A stretch of DNA of 64,000 nucleotides. Source: Chrysomallon squamiferum (Eukaryota > Animalia > Mollusca). Every line of letters begins with the position of its first letter. Within the stretch, counting starts at the first letter, position 1. The notes below the pieces were generated by a model that searched no databases, was not told the origin of the DNA, and worked only from the letters and a program-made list of their open reading frames with translations. Made by a program: the position numbers and the translations under genes. The DNA is taken from assembly GCA_012295275.1 (NCBI GenBank), contig CM022672.1, positions 21,018,001-21,082,000 of the forward strand. Reading direction: 5' to 3'. Positions 569-35,388 of the stretch are shown here, piece after piece.

Positions 569-1911
569 TCAAGCAGTGATGCCGAAGTCCTGTGGAGCGC
601 CGTAATAAACATCTTGTCTGGCGGATTCCGGAACGAAAGTGAAGCGGCGAACAACGTGGTAGTAGGGTCTTGTATTGCAGCGGATCTCAATCTGTGGGTA
701 TCCTTGGTAACAGTTACCGCATAGAGTCGCCGTGTATCCGTAACCAGCATTGATATATCCGACGTAGTCGACCGACTTAACCGTTGTTACCGGAACTACC
801 CGAACGAAAGGCAACGCCATAAATTCTGTTTTAGCAGAGGTGTAGGTTCCTCGTTTGTAGAAGTCATGTACAACACAGTTGTAGTCCGGCTGTTGGTAGT
901 ACAGCTGTGTGCGGACGATACTACTTTGACCGCAGTTATTCTCGATGTGGTAACGGCCTGGAGTGAATGACCGAATAAACGACTGGATCCGGGTACTCGC
1001 GTAGGCATAGTTACTGTAAGACTGGGCGTAACCAGCGTATCCGCCTATCCAGGGGAGAAGACGAGACCCTCCGATATAGGGAAAAGGATTGTAGCCGGGG
1101 AAACCAAAATTTGTGTAACCAAAACTTCGCTTCTTCCGGTCAGCTCGAGGTTCCTCTTCTGAAATTAAATCAAATATATCAATTTAGTAATAACTGTATA
1201 TAATGTATAATATATAATGATTTGTACCTAATTACAGTCATAACTGTAGTATAAAAACAACTATTAATAGCGAATTTCTAATCCTGATAAGAAAAATAAT
1301 GATGTTTACATCAGTCATTACTAATACTGGACACGCAGAAAAAAAAGATGAATTTTTTTGTTGCATTTTTAATAGTAATAGTAAAACCAGAAAGAGAAAT
1401 GTAAAATTCTGTTTAGAAATGAATCGTTATCAACAACTTGAAGCAACTGTAGACATGTGCGTCGATAGTTAATTTGCTTCTTCTATATTGAAGTCACTTT
1501 ATATTACACTGAGATGTCTTCTTTACTTAATTGTATTCACCATCAGCTAGAAAGAAAAGTAACTGTGATTGTTGTAGTTTCTAGTAGTTATAATGGTAGT
1601 GGCTCTTATAGGAATGGTTGTAAGGGGAGTAGCATAGTAATAGTAGAACTAATACTATAAGTAATAGTAGAATTATTGGTATTAGTAACTGTAGTAGTAC
1701 TAGTAGTGGTGGTAATGGTAGTGTTAATAATGACAGTGGTAGCAGTAGTAGCAGCAGTAATGGTAGCTTACAGCTCTATTATATCTGTAATAATATAACT
1801 TTCAAGAAGGTAAAAAAAAAAAAAAAATGTTAAACAGAATATTTTTAACACAAACTTATAGAAATAATATTGTGTCAAAGACATTGTTCAGTTTACCATT
1901 AAATCAAAAAG

Positions 1912-1954
<43 letters not shown>

Positions 1955-2354
1955 TGATGATGATGAAAATAATAGTAGTTATAGTAGTAATAGTAAAGAT
2001 AATAGTAATAATAATAATAATAGTAGTAATAATGATGGTAATGGTAGTAGTACTAGTAGCAGTAGTAGTATTAGTAGTAGAAGAAGCAGTATATACGTAG
2101 TATTAATAGTAGTGGTAGAAAATGTTTATATATTTCATCTTACTTTGTTTCTTAACTTCCTCCAAGGGCATTGGATTGTCCATTTCTTCCTCCATATCTT
2201 TAACCAAATCTAGAATGGAATCCATTTTGATGCAGCCATCTGCTTGGTTATTGTCATCACTTTTCACTTCGGCACCGCCGTCGACAGAAAGTACAAGATC
2301 TGAGACGAGAAGCAGACCAAGGGCGACAATCGCTGTCAGACGAAGAAGTTCCAT
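569..2354 (-). CDS. Secreted proprotein A, 266 aa, exons 2354-2144 and 1158-569: signal peptide, acidic propeptide, RKKR furin site, Gly/Tyr-rich segment, Cys-containing domain
   Basis: Exon 1 reads MELLRLTAIVALGLLLVSDLVLS...EEVKKQ, then a GTAAGA donor (phase 1). Acceptor tttcAG at 1160-1159. Exon 2 reads EEPRADRKKR|SFGYTNFGFPGYNPFPYIGG...HDFYKRGTYTSAKTEFMALPFV...LCGNCYQGYPQIEIRC...FGITA*, open throughout and in frame with ORF 569..820. Confidence 0.9.
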
Positions 2355-2400
2355 TGTGATGATGGGACGAACTGACGTTTTGTCAAGACACTGGCGGGGA

Positions 2401-2407
2401 ATTTATA
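2401..2407 (-). promoter_or_regulatory. Candidate TATA box (TATAAAT) of proprotein A gene
   Basis: The minus strand reads gaTATAAATtccc about 47 nt upstream of the ATG. Confidence 0.5.
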
Positions 2408-3286
2408 TCATTTTCTTCTCAGACAGTGTTGTAGGGGCAAACACTGAAAGGTCACCTGTAATTGTCGATCAAACATCGTGTATGCAGGTGTCGGGTACTT
2501 CTATGTCAATGCGAGACATCACTGCCAACAAAGACAATATCTACAGTCGACTCATGTTAAAAGTGGTTCTTCAGTTTACAACAGCCCTTGTTAATAATGA
2601 TGATGATGATAATAATAATAATAATAATGTTAACGATAATACCAAGACAATAATAAGAATATATTCTATTACAAGTATTATTTACGGCAGTTCAGATTAG
2701 TGGAATAACAGCATCTCCCGTCGATTGATTTTTGAGTGACCCAAAACGGAAAAGTAGTTAATAAGAATAATTAGACAATGACATGAAGAAAAAGGTAAGG
2801 ACATTGGTCTATACTGATGTTGCTTGTCGTAACAGTTTGCAACTATTAATTTATACTAGTACGATGATTACAAGCGCATCTAACTATATACAGTAATTGT
2901 TGTTGTTGTTGTTGATGTTGTTATAATTATTAGTTATCTTAAGTAAATAATAACAACAATGGAAATAATTTCCACTGTAGTTATTATATACTTAAGATGA
3001 ATACTATAGTATTATGTGGAGATGTAAATAACATACATTTGTTGAAAGGAAACAAATTTTATTTCATTAATCCTTACATTTGTTTATCTGTATAATATTA
3101 TCTTAATAGTCAAAAGATATACTGATATATAAGCATTCGAATTTACCGTCGAGTAATTTGTAAATTAATTACGATATCATTTTGGCCAGACATAATACTA
3201 ACCGCAATACAAAAAAGATAGAAAGAAAAGGCTTTTATAGGAATGATAATATTGATGATGATGATGTTGATGTTTATTGTGATGAT

Positions 3287-3335
<49 letters not shown>

Positions 3336-3353
3336 GTAACTGGAAAAACAAAT

Positions 3354-3387
<34 letters not shown>

Positions 3388-3937
3388 AAAGTTGTTTAAT
3401 ACTGAAACTTATTTTTGTATCGAACTGTATTCAGCTGAAATTAACTCTATTCAAATTGCGTTAACAGACACATTGCACATTTAATCAATTAATATCCTAA
3501 AGAGGTAAAAACAAGCAAAGAACGAGTGAATCCACTGTTAGAACATTCGTTTCCTTGTCGAAATAATCTTAGTTAAGTACGACGGCGCACAGACCGCTGC
3601 CAATTACCCCGGACCTGCTCCCACTGCCAATATTTGAAAGGTGGGCGACGGGCGACCCCGACTATTTAACTGAACAAAAAAACGGCCACAGCCAAATAAG
3701 CACGGTGTTGAATTATTCAATTACTTAATTAGATTCAGAAAGGTTAATTTCTTCTAACGTCGTTTCCTTTAACATAAATAGTATCTACATTCTGGGGGAA
3801 AAATAATAAAAAAAAAAAAAAAAAAAAAAAAGGAAAAAGAAGAAGAAATAAATAATATATGTATATTATTATTCTGTTATCTCCTTCTTTTATTTTATTT
3901 TATAATTTTTTTTAAAGATATATTTATATAACAAGAA

Positions 3938-3985
<48 letters not shown>

Positions 3986-4565
3986 TAGATAGATAGAGAT
4001 ATTCAGACACACATATACATTTTAGCATAATTTTTTCTTTCTACTAATTAGCATGCACTAGCAATGGGTTCACATCATTAAACAGTAAGCATGATTTAAG
4101 AGACTCCATATTACGCACATAGTATTAATACAGTAATCCAGCTTAAAATGTCATACAATACGGAAAATAGTACATAAAAAAACATACATCAAATACTCAG
4201 ACAAAATGCACGAGATAATTTGTTAAATTAAAATATCACGAGTTTGTTGTTTAATCCTCCTTAGTTATAAAATCAGAGAGTTTAGTTTATTATGTGCCTT
4301 ATTTGTTAGGGTTGTTTACATATAAAATAATGACTTTAGTATTATCATATTTCCTTTCGTTTTATTTGTCTCAAGTGTATCTGTCGTTTTATCAGTACAT
4401 AGGTACATACTCTTTATATCGAATTATCTTTGTTTTCTTCTTTCTTCTTAGTATTTCCATCCTTTCATTCCTTTATGAATGAATTTAAACAAAAACATTT
4501 AAAGTTTCAAGAACCTGACATACTAAAGCAATATATAATTAAAATATTTTATTTTCTCTTCTACC

Positions 4566-4610
<45 letters not shown>

Positions 4611-5913
4611 TAATAATAATGATGATGATGATGATGATGATAATAATGTTGACAATGATAATTTTTAAGATCTTTCGCCATAGATCTTTATTTCCAGCAA
4701 AAATGCTGTTTAAGTTTACGTTGGTAGTAACTTGGTGACAGAGCACATGAGTTTTATTGACAACCTTCTCAGTAAAACTGCTTAACGAGACCGAAGAGAA
4801 TAATATCCACCTTGTTCAAAATCGTAATTTAATGAGGTGCATTGCGTAATCGAGGGTAAACACATGACTTGAATTGTTAAATGTTTCCTTAAAACATGTC
4901 GAGTAGAAAGCATGTAAAGTAAATTTACTCAGTGTTTTTGAAGAGTTTAATTCACACGCAAGTAATTACGTAAAGTGTTAAAGGAAATGAAACAAAGTGT
5001 GCGCGCGCGCGCTCGTGTGTGTAAGTAAAATTTAATAACGCAGCTAAATGCATATTTACTGTAGAACATAGAAAACATTGATAATAACTGACAAGAAATA
5101 GTATACAATATTATTGTTGTTGTTATTATTGCCATTGTTGTTATTATTATTAGTATTATTGTTATTATTACTGCTACTTCTGGTTTGTGAGTGTAGTTAA
5201 AAAGAGACAGTTTTATCTTCGACAATAGTTATTAATAACTAGTAGTTAATTTAAACAGCGATACAAATTAATTCCTATCAATTCCTTAATAAAATATCAC
5301 TTCGCTTCAGAGAACAAAATCAATCATTATCTCTGCTCTGTTCTCAAGAAAAACTTAGTAAAACAGATTTGTCTAATTCTGTTATTTATTATTATTATTT
5401 AACAACATACACCAATAATATTACAGTTTTAATTTTGACAAACCTGGTAAGTTATATAGTTTATTTCTAGATATGATTAATTATTTTGCTGTGACTGCTG
5501 TTGTTGTCGTCGTCGTCGTCCTATAATCAGAATAGGTCAAAATAAAGTTAGTTTAACACATTTTTTTCTTAATTTTTAAATTATTTTTCCAGTCTTTAAT
5601 TATTACGAATTTAATAATTCGTATTGACATTTTCTCTTTGCAACTTGCACCAAATCCAGTTTATGCCCTAAATAAGTTTTAAAATGTATGTAACAGCTTT
5701 GGTTCTTTATAATTAAGTTTTTACTTCATTTTTTGTAAAATGCACACGACAGTCGGTTGAGATTAAGATAAACATTTTATAACAAGAAAAGAAATGTCAT
5801 TATAGAGTGAAACAAAATGAAAACAGGTAAATGTTTAGCAACATTTCAAGACGTTTTAATATTAAAGACATTATTGATAAATGGGTAAGGATCGTGCTGC
5901 CATCAAAGGTCTT

Positions 5914-6272
5914 CTGAAAAGAAAAAATAATAATTTATATGCATTTGTCCTTAGAAAAAATATACACCGTGGTGTTTGATAAACCATTCGTTCTGATACT
6001 TTCAACCCATTAATCTTATGTCAGCACTCAAACTACAAAAAGGTTACATAAATAATAAGAAGGAAAAAAAAATGACAACAAAATTAAAAAAAAAAAAAAA
6101 AAATGAAATGATGAAAGACAACAATGAATTTTAAACATTATTTTTATTTCACTGAAAGTTTTTTCCATCAAAACTGATCCATTTTTACAAATAAGACAAA
6201 CTATCATTAACGTCTATTATATTTGACAGTTAAATATATATAAATACAGAATAAAATGGCTTTAGGAATCAC
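5914..6272 (-). other. Candidate 3'UTR intron of proprotein B
   Basis: Donor AG|GTGATT lies 27 nt after the stop. A strong acceptor ttttcttttcAG lies at 5915-5914. Confidence 0.4.
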
Positions 6273-6299
6273 CTACACAAAGCAGATTTTATTTAATCT

Positions 6300-7372
6300 T
6301 TATGCCAGGTAAACGTAGTATCTGGAAACACGCCTGCCTGGGAATAGATCTGACGAGAGGTAACTGGTGATACAAGGATTATAGTTTTGACAACAACTGT
6401 TGCAGAGTTCGAACGTGTAACTTGGAAACGACCTTGAAACTGCTTGATAGACTATCGGCTGGATAACAGAAGTCTCCGCAGTCTGAACAATGTTAGCTTG
6501 TGCCTGCGAGACTAGTTTCCGGTTGATGAGCGGAAGTGCCATGAAGTCATTGTACGCATTCTCGTAGGTGCCAGTTTTGTAGTAATATCTCGAGACAGCC
6601 CCTTCGGTGGTTCGTACAATTTGCGCAGGCGCGCTGAAGGAGGTGAAAAAACGCTGAGAGGGGAGATTAAAAGCTGACGTTCTAATCAGGCCTGGATAGA
6701 GGGTGAAGTCTGGAAGGGGCAGATACAACCATGGGTTATATCCAACTGATCCGACGTTCGGGAGAAACGTTGACCTCTTCGTACGGCTTGTCTCGCCTGC
6801 ATCTGTAAAACAAAAGTGTGACAGTAAAATTACTCACGAAATTAAATTAAAACATAAAATTCGTTTGTATAAATGGGAATAATGGAAATACAAAAAGGGG
6901 AATGGATGGTGAAAAGTACAAATGTGAATGTCAATGCACGTGGAGGTGCAGAGCCATTATTTAAGGGAAGGTAAAGTACATCACAATTGTTGTGCATAAA
7001 CATTCCGAATGTGATGTTTAGATTTTAATATGGATGTAAAACAAATTAGAGCAGCAACAACTATAAGTTTAAACATTTTCCACTTTTGCTGAATTTGTTC
7101 CACATAAAATCTTAAATATAGTAATTTTGAAGTTACAAAACCTTATACTGTTAATAATAATTACATACGAAATGTAAAACAACTGACGATTTGCTATGAA
7201 AAGAAAAGATATACTAACCACAGTCAGCGATGCCCATGTTTGCTTGGAAGGCCGCTTCATCCAAAGCTTCTTTTGCCGTCTCCGTAGACTCGCTCTTCTT
7301 CCGATCTTCACTTACTGCCAGACAAACTGACAGCAGAAGCACACTCGCCAGGCAGATATGTCTGATCGCCAT
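6300..7372 (-). CDS. Secreted proprotein B, 218 aa, exons 7372-7219 and 6802-6300; paralogue of proprotein A
   Basis: Exon 1 reads MAIRHICLASVLLLSVCLAVSEDRKK...GIADC, then a GTTAGT donor (phase 1). Acceptor ttttacAG at 6804-6803. Exon 2 reads DAGETSRTKR|STFLPNVGSVGYNPWLYLP...YYYKTGTYENAYNDFMALPLI...YTFELCNSCCQNYNPC...VYLA*. It has the same exon layout and shared motifs as gene A. Confidence 0.9.
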
Positions 7373-13829: not shown

Positions 13830-14123
13830 TCAACTGTCTCTCAAGTTTCTCTGATCAATCTGTGTTCTTAAACGTGTGGCTTCCTCAGCCTTCGTGCTGG
13901 CATAATGATGATACATCATCTTCATTCCGGTCACTATTGACAACTGCAGCCGCAGGTTGTAGCGAAATGAGTTCTTTTTGTATTTGGCTGCACGCTTATA
14001 CCGCACTTCCAGATCTCTGATCTTCTGTTCCAGCAACACAATTTGCTGATAAGCTCTCTCAAACTTTTTTCTTGCTTCCAGCAGCTTTTCATCAAGCTGA
14101 TTGTTAACATCAAGTTCAGACAT
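13830..14123 (-). CDS. 97-aa coiled-coil protein of unknown function
   Basis: MSELDVNNQLDEKLLEARKKFERAYQQIVLLEQKIRDLEVRYKRAAKYKKNSFRYNLRLQLSIVTGMKMMYHHYA...; heptad-like pattern and a GC rise over the ORF. Its exon starts at acceptor attacAG (exon from 14203), with an upstream donor CAG|GTAAGT at 15344. Confidence 0.85.
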   Translation of the reverse strand: MSELDVNNQLDEKLLEARKKFERAYQQIVLLEQKIRDLEVRYKRAAKYKKNSFRYNLRLQLSIVTGMKMMYHHYASTKAEEATRLRTQIDQRNLRDS

Positions 14124-15343
14124 CTCCCATGAATAAGCTCCAACTCTCTGATCTGTGCTTGTTAATTCATTAAGTTAGTCTTCTTTGTCTTCTTTATATA
14201 CACCTGTAATACATTAATTCACAGTATTAAAACGTCATACCAAATGTTGTAAGATTCTGTTGTTCCACATCTGTTTTTATTTTCTCCAAAACAGTACAAG
14301 AAAAATATCCAGAATTTGCAAAGATACTTTAAGAAACAACTGTATTATGTATGATGCTTAACAGAGGAATTGTTATCTCAAACATTTATTTTCATATGCA
14401 TTGTTTCACTTAGACAATGTGACTCCCTTTATGAACTTCAGTTAACTAACTGAAATTAAAATTTTACTGTGTGGCTGATTTTCTTTCAAAAACTTAAATT
14501 CATTTTGGAATATTCTATAAAATGCAGGAATAAACGTAATTTTTAATATTTAAATTCAGAATGATGTAAACTATATTGTATTTATAACAATGTTTTCACT
14601 TTCTTTACCAGAGCTTAACTTTTACAACTCACTACAGTTGATAACTTTACATTTCTTATTTTTAGTTTAACTGAACCTTTTTGGCAAAAAAAAACAATAA
14701 TAAAAAAAATTAGCATCTGCCAGGATCACCATTTTTTATATTTTTGCAATTAATGTTTCAATATATAAATCATCTTTTATTTAAAATAAAATAAAATAAT
14801 AATAATATATTAAATTTTGAATTATACTTAATGCTTTTTTTATGATATATTTCTTTAAAAGTTATACTGGTAATGATTTACAAAGATAAATGGCGTTGAC
14901 AGTAACAACCTAATAATGATTTTGTCCAAGTCTCTACTCTGCTTATATATTTATAAACACTTAAAACACTTGAACAGCCTATATTTTTATCAACCGATGT
15001 ATTACAACTCACTTACTCAGTGCTGAGATGGGCAGGTGATTTTCCATTTCATTAACAACAAGAACAATAATTTTATTCAGTAATTCAGTATTATGTAATG
15101 TTTGGGTGTTTCGGTGGTGCCTAGTTTAACCAAACTTTTGTTTCTCTCTATGTCCAGTCTAGATCAGACAGTGATACACCGGCTGAGACGCGGTTAACAA
15201 TAACATAACGATGACATAATTATGAGGCACAGACTGGCAATTTCTAGAACAATTATTCGGATATTTTAATTGTATTAAAATAAAATTAAAATGTTTAAAG
15301 TGTCTTTCGTGAATTACTATACTCAAAACAGAATATAACTTAC

Positions 15344-24833: not shown

Positions 24834-27800
24834 CATCATCATTATTATTCTTGTTAGAAAAAAATCGTTTTGCTTTGCAAGATATAAAATCATCTGACTT
24901 TTTAGACAGAAAAAATTGTATTTGTTTGAAATGGTTGTTATTATTATTGCAGGCTCATTCTTCAGTGGAGAGGGCAGGTTTGATAGGAGCTGTAAAAATG
25001 ATTAAACTAGAGACAGATGAAAATGGAGTCCTTCAAGGAGCTACACTGGAGAATGCCATTGCATCTGATAAAGAGAAAGGTCTCATACCATTCTTTGTAA
25101 GTTTTTAAATAATAAACTCTTGACATTTCTAAAATATTAAGCTTGCTGATTTAATATTAATATTAATGATTGTTAAATGTTAAATGGAAGGGTTGTTTTA
25201 ATACTATTATTTGATATTTAAAAATACTAAACCTTCTGGAGTTATTCTTATCAGTTAGCAGAGACAACATTTTTACATGCAGTTACTCATACTAATGGAA
25301 GTATTTAAAATTGTGAACATACAATAGTGGATGGATCTTCAAGCTAATACACTGACACTGAGAGTTTTCCATTATAAATATTTTAACAATAATTCTTCTA
25401 ATGTATTATCCTTACTGGTTAAGAAACTGTTACTGTATTTTCATATTATTTGTTTTAATTCTTTTGACTTGTAATTTGTTTTATTTTCATATTATTTGTT
25501 TTAATTCTTTTGACTTGTAATTTGTTTTATTTTCATATCATTAAATGACAAACTTAAATTTTAATAATTATTATATAAATTAAAATCATATAATGGGATT
25601 AAATAAAGTTGAATGTATCAATTTATCAGATTATATTTTATATGTGACATTGCTTGTCTAGAATTCTCTCTGCTAATAGTGTGTTAGGTATAGAAATATT
25701 TATGTTTGTAAATTTCACAATATAGTATGTTTGGTATTTTTTTAAATTTTCTTTTTTCATGAAGTTTTGTGCAACTTTGGGAACTACAGTTTCCTGTGCA
25801 TTTGACAACATAAAAGAGCTAGGACCAGTTTGTAAGTATTATGAAATTGTTTATTATTTTAACAATGACAAATAAGTTGTTTTTTTATTATTATTATTAT
25901 TATTATTCCTGTTGTTAATATTGTTATTGTTTATTAAACTAAGTAAATAAAAATATATAAGGTCTTCCTGTTTAAATGCATTCCACAATGCTTCACATTA
26001 ATTTGTTTACTGTCTTTTTTTAGTATTCAGTAATAACATGTTTTAAATTTGAATTTAACAGTGTTAACACATCTTTATATATTTAAATCCTGAAAGAAAG
26101 TGTAAAATATGAGCCATTCTGTCTTGCTGGAAACAATCTGACCAGTCAAAACAAAGTTAAAAAGAAATGTTAAAAAAAAAAAGAAGAAAAAAAAAGGAAT
26201 TAATTAATTAATTAATAACTGGTCTTGGTAACAGTTATGGTCACCTGATTAACATAACAACATATTTGTATATTATGATTATTTTTAAGTACTAATGATC
26301 TGAATACTAGAATATGTTAATTGATGCTGTGTTGTATTATAGTTATAATAAGAAACAATTGTAACATTAGTAGTGGAACTGTACAATACATTTAATTAAA
26401 TTCAGGTGTAGCTGCAGGAATATGGATGCATATTGATGCAGCTTATGCTGGGAGTGCATTTATCTGTCCAGAGTTTAGGCCCCTGCTTGATGGTGTTGAG
26501 GTTATTATCATTTTATCACAGTTATCTACCTTGGAATATGATTTATAGTCACTATGTTGAAAGTAGAACAAAAACAGAAAGAAAAGAAGCCCAAAACAAA
26601 ACAACATATAAATCAGTAGCAACCATTTTTATAATATGCAAATACACAAATATTAAACAATATGTGTATACAAAATAGTCTCTAAATATATAAATTGTTA
26701 TAGTATTTTCAACATTGATCATATTTTCATTTTTACATAAATATTTGTAATATTTATGAAAAATAATATTTTACTACAACAAATTTCCATAATTTTGTAA
26801 ATACTTTTAAAATTTTTTGCATTCTTAAAATTGGTTAATAAAACTTATGAAAATGTTAATTTTGTTTTCAGCATGCCATGTCGTTCAATTTTAACCCTCA
26901 CAAATGGCTGCAAGTTAACTTTGACTGCTCAACAATGTGGTAAGTTGTTTATCAACAACATTAATTTCTTGTAGTCTTTTGGAATTTGAAACGTTAATAA
27001 GTGAATTAAAATATATTATTTAAAAAAGAAAAAAAGAAAGAGATTAAATAAATAAATGATAATGAAAAAAGTATTAATAGTTTCTGTTTCTAATTTCATT
27101 TTGAACTTATAAATGAATGATGCTAAGATGCTGGTAATTTGAAATTATTTTCATTTACACTTCATTCATATTTTCAGGGTGAAAGACAGAAAGCTGATAA
27201 GTGAAGCATTTGATGTTGATCCACTTTATCTTAAACATGAAAATCAGGGTAAAATGCCAGATTACAGGGTAAGATAAACATAAAATTCATTTCTTTTAAC
27301 TTTCTGTTTTTTTTTTGAGAGAAAAAAATAGCCTCATATTTTATTTATTTTTTATATATGGTTATATATCTGTTTACACAAGAATATTTTACAAGCAATG
27401 TTAAAAAAGATAACACAAAAAAGAAACAAAAATATAATAACAACAACAACAAAAAAAAAACACAATAAAACCCAGAAAACCCCCCACAAAATCACCAATT
27501 TATCTTAGACTTATAATAAAAGAACAACAGGCAATGCAAATTTCCTAGAAAAGACCAGTCCTGCAATACCAAACATCTTATCACAGTTATTTCTGAATGT
27601 TTTATTCTGCTGCTAGTTTAAAGTATACCTGAGGTTGTAAGATTAAATCATCAAATAAGATTCTTTATACTTCCAAGTTTTTATTAATTTTATTGTTATA
27701 TGTTACTAACATTGCCCATAACAAGGCATAGAAATAAAATAATAATGTCACAAAAGATTTGAATGCTGCCATTTCTTCTTTCTACAGTTGCAGTCATGCT

Positions 27801-29082
27801 GTCATTGTGTACTTTTATTAGTATTTTCATAAACTGCACTAGAATAAACATAGATAAAAAGGTTCCAGCCTCTGTGTGTTGATATCACAAGCACAGAAAA
27901 ATGGTTGCATCCAGACATTATTAAACTGTGCTCTTTTGTTGTTATACTTTATTATTAATTAAGAATGGACATCAAAAGAAAATCAAGTAGAACATGCAAA
28001 TATGCAGAATATATTGAGACAATTTTATTACTACATTTTAAGAGTTTAATTCACTGAAATGTTTGTTTTCAGCACTGGCATATACCTCTGGGCAGGCGAT
28101 TCAGATCTCTCAAACTCTGGTTTGTTCTCAGGTTGTATGGATTGAAAGGTCTTCAGCAGATGATTCACAAAGTGAGTGGAAGCTCAACTTGTAACATAAC
28201 AACTAAACTTTATAAATCAAACATATATCTAATTTTTAAATAAATGAATATTTAAAGTTTAACAAAAATGTATTTGAAGCCTAAATCTTTATTTAATTTA
28301 GAACCATTATTTATCTGCTGTCAGAAAAGTACATTTATAATTAAAATAAATTAAAAACTATAAAAATTTTAAATTTTAAAAAATAAATTGTTCAGACATT
28401 AAAATGTTGGTATCAGTTGTTTTTTTTGTTTTTTGCCAAGCTTATTTTCTTAATGACTGTTAGTAAGCAATAAATAAATAAATAAATGAAAATGAATAAT
28501 AATAATAATAATAATGATGATGATGATGAAGATAATGATGCTTAGTCTTAATAAATATAAACTTTGAGTCATCTGAACACTAGAAAATGTTTTTCTTTCT
28601 TTCAGGATGTTGGCCTGGCTAAGGACTTTGAGTCTTATGTGAAAGCTGATGAAAGATTTGAGATTATTAATACTAGTATGGGTTTGGTGTGCTTCAGATT
28701 AAAGGTATTTAAATAAAGCTTGTTCTTTTGCACAGGCACACACCACTCGCACACACAAACACACACACACACACACATTACTGATAAATAAAATTCATAT
28801 GGTTTTAATATACTATTAAACGAGATCTTTTTTTATAATCAGCTTTTAAAACTTTTTTATTTTTATTTTCAGGGTGATAATGAAATTAATGAGCAACTCC
28901 TAAAAGCAATAAATGACGAAGGTCGAATACATCTAGTACCCTCTAAGATGAAATCAAAGTATTTCTTGCGTTTTGCAATCTGTGCATCAAGAACAAACTT
29001 AGGTGATGTTAGATTTGCCTGGCAAGTCATTCTTGATGCAACTAACAGCTTACTGAAGGAGACACATAATGAAGACACATAA
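20538..29082 (+). CDS. Ddc: Aromatic L-amino acid (DOPA) decarboxylase, ~480 aa. Exons 20538-20738, 22256-22370 (1-nt frameshift), 24036-24155, 24526-24660, 24953-25096, 25765-25831, 26406-26500, 26872-26939, 27178-27268, 28073-28171, 28606-28704, 28873-29082
   Basis: Motifs [25 protein letters not shown]|[28 protein letters not shown]|[37 protein letters not shown] (PLP lysine), DPLYLKH and [13 protein letters not shown]. All introns are GT-AG with compatible phases once the extra base in exon 2 is removed. Confidence 0.95.
21057..21960 (+). mobile_element. Decayed, internally deleted Tc1/mariner transposon in the first coding intron of Ddc
   Basis: Fragments [29 protein letters not shown] (Tc1 GGGSVMVW motif) and ALNWEWNAI...[22 protein letters not shown] (Tc1 C-terminus, SM.RR..AVI.A.G.HT). 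Degenerate TIR: caaaaacgtttag versus the reverse complement caaataagtttag. Ends are TA-rich. Confidence 0.85.
22500..22750. repeat. Degenerate ~40-bp minisatellite (gatattgtatgtctgtatgtaatg...)
   Basis: The core recurs about 5-6 times in a Ddc intron. Confidence 0.6.
23778..23980. repeat. 30-bp minisatellite, ~7 copies (taactaaagttgacactttgttaatataac)
   Basis: Units start at 23781, 23811, 23841, 23871 and 23901, followed by shortened copies. Confidence 0.85.
25438..25538. repeat. Exact 46-bp tandem duplication
   Basis: catattatttgttttaattcttttgacttgtaatttgttttatttt occurs at 25442 and 25488, with a partial third copy at 25534. Confidence 0.85.

Positions 29083-31515: not shown

Positions 31516-35388
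<3,873 letters not shown>

Follow-up and report, generated by a model that had tools for sequence, protein, structure and literature searches.

Two genes, here called A and B, lie near the start of a 64,000-nucleotide stretch of DNA from the mollusc Chrysomallon squamiferum (contig CM022672.1, positions 21,018,001 to 21,082,000; hereafter the window), and their predicted mature products recall the C-terminal tips of bacterial polymorphic toxins; the question is whether an animal has taken up such a tip and, if so, what it now does with it. An earlier reading made from the letters alone (the sequence-only reading) had proposed a bacterial RNase-type toxin domain that was acquired by an animal, given a signal peptide and an intron, and duplicated. 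In our analysis the snail domain is very probably homologous to a family of bacterial tips, and its core probably derives from a polymorphic-toxin tip borrowed long ago; the genes and the likely toxin-tip origin were thus retained from the earlier reading, its Cupriavidus label was not, and an active RNase is improbable.

Genes A and B and their gastropod relatives

The window is AT-rich, microsatellite-laden DNA of eukaryotic character (26-36% GC). Both peptides quoted in the sequence-only reading were found in the window as genuine open frames of its minus strand, and the two genes are related as paralogues (tblastn within the window gave E 8e-7, with 28% identity over 163 columns). The splice sites are predictions, made from the sequence and from gene models of the vent snail Gigantopelta aegis, which can be aligned with the two exons of A and of B alike. 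Gene A (ATG at 2354; exons 2354-2144 and 1158-569) encodes 266 amino acids with no internal stops, and gene B (ATG at 7372; exons 7372-7219 and 6802-6300) encodes 218 amino acids, or 217 if an alternative in-frame GT donor 3 nt away is used. The features are as follows.

2144..2354, minus strand: gene A exon 1; predicted signal peptide and acidic pro-region with one Cys; GT donor at 2143
1159..2143, minus strand: gene A intron, predicted; phase 1, 985 nt, GT..AG, frame kept
569..1158, minus strand: gene A exon 2; RKKR furin-type site, Gly/Tyr-rich linker, toxin-tip-like domain, short tail and stop
617..991, minus strand: gene A conserved domain with CxxC; core 623-880 modelled as strand, helix and five strands
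7219..7372, minus strand: gene B exon 1; predicted signal peptide and acidic pro-region with one Cys
6803..7218, minus strand: gene B intron, predicted; phase 1, 416 nt, or 419 nt with the other donor
6300..6802, minus strand: gene B exon 2; RTKR furin-type site, linker, toxin-tip-like domain with four Cys, stop

The claimed intron was recovered in each gene as a predicted phase-1 GT..AG intron, and exon 2 of each starts just ahead of the R-x-K-R site; for the claimed signal peptides, a hydrophobic stretch at each N-terminus was the only criterion. The pro-region of gene A has a net charge of -10. No third copy of the family was found in the window (the next six-frame match to the family profile had E 0.72); gene A lies only 568 bases from the window start, so more copies may lie outside it. 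The exons of A and B had no read cover in three RNA runs.

Word searches found one orthologue per gene, both on the same contig of Gigantopelta aegis and 69% and 71% identical, respectively. For gene A, the comparison with LOC121382904 gave 56% for exon 1 against the N-terminus and 69% identity for exon 2, with the domain (79% identical) better conserved than the N-terminal part (59%); for gene B, the comparison with LOC121384671 gave 60% for exon 1 and 71% identity for exon 2. A four-sequence profile run against 1.84 billion representatives gave 14 matches at E<=0.001, the named ones being from Haliotis rubra, Lottia gigantea (four genes), Patella caerulea and Pomacea canaliculata; one of the 14, a 1,230-residue repeat protein (P0013), was dropped as a false positive (repeat artefact). 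A word search among proteins of 273-2,000 residues returned four matches, none named bacterial, and added Batillaria and one further protein. No family in Pfam or NCBIfam fits the snail proteins (E 0.009 at best, reached with single members). As far as its sequences indicate, the family is uncatalogued and spread over limpets, abalone, apple snails and vent snails; no bivalve, cephalopod, heterobranch or non-mollusc was among the named profile matches, which is weak evidence of absence from so shallow a profile.

In each of the 15 full-length members examined, the N-terminus is hydrophobic, the pro-region carries a net negative charge (-3 to -22), and an R-x-K/R-R site precedes a domain of net positive charge (+4 to +13); the linker after the site is Gly/Tyr-rich in most of them. 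A Cys is present in the pro-region of 13 of the 15, and the Cys count of mature A is odd (five), so that a disulfide between pro-region and mature part, or between chains, is possible. Tree analysis separated A-type from B-type domains (100/100), with Lottia members in each type; the pair is therefore ancient, with A and B still linked in the window. One divergent B-type domain (P0016/P0021, ENA) lacks both the signal peptide and the CxxC; it may represent a second exon on its own or a member from outside the gastropods.

The conserved domain and bacterial toxin tips

Bacterial loci were selected by running the motif of the sequence-only reading as a degenerate DNA pattern against a genome collection, which gave 14 loci (L001-L014). 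The motif stands 66-81 residues before the end of the longer frame in all 14, and an open reading frame of 100-165 codons follows within 55 bases downstream in 13. Upstream modules are of the Rhs, PT-HINT, haemagglutinin and PT-TG kinds (Pfam matches in four of eight long frames), and a CdiA-like haemagglutinin-repeat protein of Duffyella bears the same tip. The family (L001-L014, L041, L042, L050-L055, L068) occurs in Bacillota, Campylobacter, Acidobacteriota, Duffyella, Neisseria, Lactococcus, Enterococcus and Paenibacillus phage Likha; no relatives of the snail or the bacterial family were found in viral contigs. Delivery modules upstream and an open reading frame downstream correspond to a polymorphic-toxin layout with immunity genes, from which we infer toxicity. 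The tips had no match in Pfam and no sequence match in the PDB, and an ESM Atlas search with a bacterial tip gave only leads below 0.8, to Ntox37, Ntox17 and Ntox21. On this analysis the family is likely an uncatalogued polymorphic-toxin tip, likely deployed by bacteria against other bacteria.

Alignment of the snail profile with the bacterial profile (hhalign) gave a probability of 94.5% (E 8e-8, 62 columns), at about 19-21% sequence identity. Because the bacterial set was chosen by a motif that resembles the snail sequence, the match was examined for circularity with decoys, a half-domain and motif-free members. The score of 45 was reached by none of 150 column shuffles (maximum 16.3) and none of 150 block shuffles (maximum 29.4); the half of the domain after the selecting motif, taken by itself, kept the register of the full alignment (P 0.005; reached by 0 of 150 and 1 of 150 decoys); and six bacterial members without the selecting motif still gave 87.6% (E 3.5e-6). 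In six-frame searches of five tip-bearing genomes with the snail profile, the tip was the sole match at E<=10 in four (E 3.9e-5 to 0.014). Among 400 unselected genomes, a sample that contains just five tip copies in four genomes, the snail profile gave 10 matches at E<=0.1; those ranked second and third were family members, and they alone covered profile positions 22/24-85 without a stop. A PDB sequence search matched only TPR repeats and was set aside as spurious, the score being summed over a 17-residue motif.

The AlphaFold2 models of the gene A domain (mean pLDDT 89.6) and of a bacterial tip (93.0) have an identical order of elements, i.e. strand, helix and five strands, and show the same end registers on three shared structural targets. 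Foldseek searches against the PDB and BFVD gave nothing at E<=0.001, and no usable match to the snail domain was obtained in the ESM Atlas. Two small uncharacterised viral proteins in BFVD, A0A6G5YDG1 and A0A8S5T3W3, had a TM-score of 0.53 to the snail model (E 0.028 and 0.12).

Residues were compared between 30 bacterial tips and 16 snail-family domains, leaving out bacterial positions 57 and 59; the register of the last strand was taken from the range ends on the three shared structural targets. The tips carry a set of polar residues, E28 (in 27), R68 (28), S71 (29), T77 (29), E79 (30) and R90 (28). Their snail counterparts are Tyr at E28 (15), Cys at R68 and at S71 (15 each), Lys, Gln, Cys or Gly at T77, Asp or Glu at E79 (9) and Val at R90 (13). 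Glycines, the helix pattern and the Pro-x-Ile start of a strand are retained, and Tyr makes up 7-15% of the domain in 15 snail members vs 3% in the 30 tips. This pattern probably reflects a fold that was kept and an active site that was lost, with a CxxC suited to the extracellular space.

In a second DNA data set (X1), the exons and intron of gene B are contiguous on one contig with about 1% differences; given this and the intron-bearing, animal-type genes nearby, contamination is unlikely.

Elsewhere in the window, exons of a pyridoxal-dependent decarboxylase (aromatic amino acid-type, PF00282; no link to A or B shown) lie at 24899-29082 on the plus strand, and Hsp70 exons, BiP-like and with an endoplasmic-reticulum-retention-like tetrapeptide at the end, at 31516-34743 on the minus strand. 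An open frame of 114 amino acids at 13830-14174 (minus strand) is coding-like and coiled-coil-like and has no Pfam match.

Proposed role and competing explanations

Our preferred reading, which we put forward tentatively and at slightly less than even confidence, is that A and B, predicted to be secreted as proproteins, belong to an old gastropod family in which the tip-derived domain is now a non-enzymatic matrix or binding protein that a furin-type cut separates from a charge-shielding pro-piece. The tip would have passed from a bacterium to an early gastropod or an earlier mollusc; it would then have been set behind a signal-peptide/pro exon and duplicated into the A and B types. The Arg and Ser beside the putative active-site loop would have given way to the CxxC, and the sheet face would have become rich in Tyr and Val. 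Until a furin-type protease cuts the precursor in the secretory path, the acidic pro-region would mask the charge of the cationic mature part; once freed, the Gly/Tyr-rich cationic protein may attach to polyanions or chitin and become cross-linked via its Tyr residues within a tanned structure, candidates being the periostracum, operculum, radula, jaw or egg coat.

A disulfide-stabilised extracellular-matrix module is proposed in view of the composition and of the general character of mollusc matrix proteins. The four Lottia gene ids occur 0 times in the supplements (5 and 12 files) of two Lottia shell proteomes, a search that included no positive-control id; the absence of the Lottia members there counts to some degree against a role in the calcified shell.

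With the same bacterial origin, the products might instead be secreted antimicrobials or microbiome-shaping proteins that bind bacterial surfaces or nucleic acid through the cationic domain and the Gly/Tyr-rich arm, and that would not cleave RNA. All 15 members show the layout typical of antimicrobial precursors (acidic pro-piece, furin-type site, cationic mature part), and the bacterial source family consists of toxin tips that have an immunity-like reading frame beside them. We nevertheless consider this role unlikely, since the orthologue domains are 72-79% conserved and two caenogastropod-type domains are almost identical on the tree, which would be unlike fast-evolving immune effectors, and few copies were seen (two in the window, four in Lottia).

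Several observations weigh against a bacterial origin of the domain as such. The C-terminal half alone reached only 6.8% hhalign probability, three of the five tip copies in the 400-genome sample were missed, and the two recovered scored 15.2-15.4 bits, i.e. inside the noise (unrelated matches up to 16.0, and 17.5 in a second sample). The best single score, 25.1 bits, corresponds to about E 1.4 when scaled to the 1.84-billion library, in which the four-sequence profile had no match named bacterial. In 300 genomes of the phylum of the Campylobacter tip, a sample with no other full member, 11 non-seed matches at E<=0.05 included no family member. The helix motif YYxxGxY also fits TPR repeats, the N-terminal 'PG[RK]' likeness of the two families gives no score on its own, the likeness of the two models is one of element order with no direct superposition, and the snail domains are not nested inside the bacterial ones in the tree, which is unrooted. 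Convergence on a small helix-plus-meander fold with a TPR-like helix motif, i.e. an animal invention unrelated to toxins, is improbable, for the decoys, the motif-free members and the blind genome search lead to the same family in the same register, and the two models share three structural targets with the same end registers.

It is more doubtful still that the snail proteins are nucleases with a rebuilt active site, acting in defence or digestion. The position of E79 is acidic in 9 of the 16 snail domains, gene A with its Glu among them, and one Arg, peculiar to the snail domains, is invariant (16/16); both facts count against complete loss of activity, since some chemistry could remain, and the element order agrees with the description of BECR-like RNases, whose catalytic residues differ from family to family (bioRxiv 10.64898/2026.08.28.747851). 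The snail domains have, however, replaced five of the six invariant residues on the sheet face of the tips, the scattered His residues reach 7 of 16 at most in any column, and RNase activity of the bacterial tips is itself only putative. Furthermore, the one tested BECR-like RNase (bioRxiv 10.64898/2026.09.18.752725) cuts 23S rRNA with the help of EF-Tu, and this need for EF-Tu and cytosolic ribosomes would be hard to satisfy for a free secreted protein.

Comparison with known systems

The sequence-only reading had associated the domain with CdiA-CT of the Cupriavidus taiwanensis type. No CDI chain was matched at E<=10 among 177,635 PDB sequences, whether snail or bacterial profiles were used, and this attribution is unsupported, the bacterial tips being without a Pfam or PDB sequence match. 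The structures 5T86 (E. coli A0 34/86) and 5T87, the latter of which we take to be CdiA-CT of C. taiwanensis, gave 9-11% identity and match neither family in sequence; 5T87 was not among the best 50 matches of any structure list.

Another point of comparison is the BECR-like superfamily (SRLase1/STox4, Ntox47 branch), with which the tips share an extra N-terminal strand, the helix, a variable first hairpin, a long loop between the third and fourth strands and an extra last strand. Helix, third strand, long loop, fourth strand and last strand come in a fitting order, as judged without the strand order in the sheet. In BECR-like RNases, conserved charged residues, often His, flank the third-to-fourth-strand loop (bioRxiv 10.64898/2026.08.28.747851); the third strand of the bacterial tips closes with a conserved Arg, in keeping with the active-site positions described there, and the loop is flanked by Arg, Ser, Thr and Glu. 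A conserved His is present in neither the tips nor the snail family, and in 15 of the 16 snail domains the loop-flanking residues are replaced by the CxxC.

The snail domain resembles the bacterial tips in the profile match over 62 columns, the element order, the helix and strand motifs and the cationic character; it differs in the replaced polar residues and the gained CxxC. The bacterial tips have a delivery module and an immunity-like open reading frame, whereas the snail genes have a signal/pro exon, a furin site, an intron and no such neighbour.

In animals, the teneurin ABD ('antibiotic-binding-like domain', PF23538; PDB 6FB3, 9G42, 8R51) is part of a large membrane receptor, in which it follows the YD shell, and is described as resembling bleomycin-binding proteins. 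That the snail domain is a fast-diverged copy of the teneurin ABD of the same animal, a domain that itself goes back to a bacterial toxin, rather than a fresh transfer is highly doubtful, given 12-14% identity to the teneurin ABD in structural alignments vs about 19-21% to the bacterial tips, a PF23538 profile that matches 0 of 13 snail domains at E<=1, neither A nor B of the window at E<=10 and no tip in five genomes (E<=10), in contrast to the snail profile, which does find tips, and a snail profile that finds no teneurin in the PDB at E<=10, in a comparison made without mollusc teneurin sequences.

Literature searches gave no record of the snail family or of its bacterial link, and the gene ids were not found in full text. 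In the supplements searched of PMC4094399, PMC3374290, PMC9263180, PMC7142155 (without file 13) and PMC7333891 there were no gene ids, only digit matches inside numbers (PMC9263180), and the passages of PMC5995198 consulted were uninformative. In the main text of the BECR preprint (bioRxiv 10.64898/2026.08.28.747851) the terms 'teneurin', '5T87', 'animal' and 'mollus' occur 0 times; its supplements or web resource may already name the bacterial family.

Returning to a bacterial origin with loss of the active site, a wider proposal, more speculative than the preferred reading, is that animals may have domesticated one bacterial tip family twice: in the teneurin ABD, as a vestigial BECR-like tip in tandem with Tox-GHH, and independently in the furin-processed secreted family of gastropods, in which the active site would have been swapped for a disulfide and the domain made a building block of a snail-specific structure. 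If the link between the snail family and the bacterial tips holds, it would give an origin for a lineage-restricted 'orphan' secreted family that was retained since early gastropod evolution, offer a clear example of a weapon that became a non-enzymatic module, define an uncatalogued bacterial toxin family and suggest that the teneurin ABD is a relic toxin tip. Ticks have acquired amidase effectors from bacteria, and the aerolysin-like biomphalysins reportedly stem from a bacterial toxin domain transferred into animals. Transfer of bacterial toxin domains to animals is thus a known kind of event, teneurins included, to which the snail case would add the link with teneurins.

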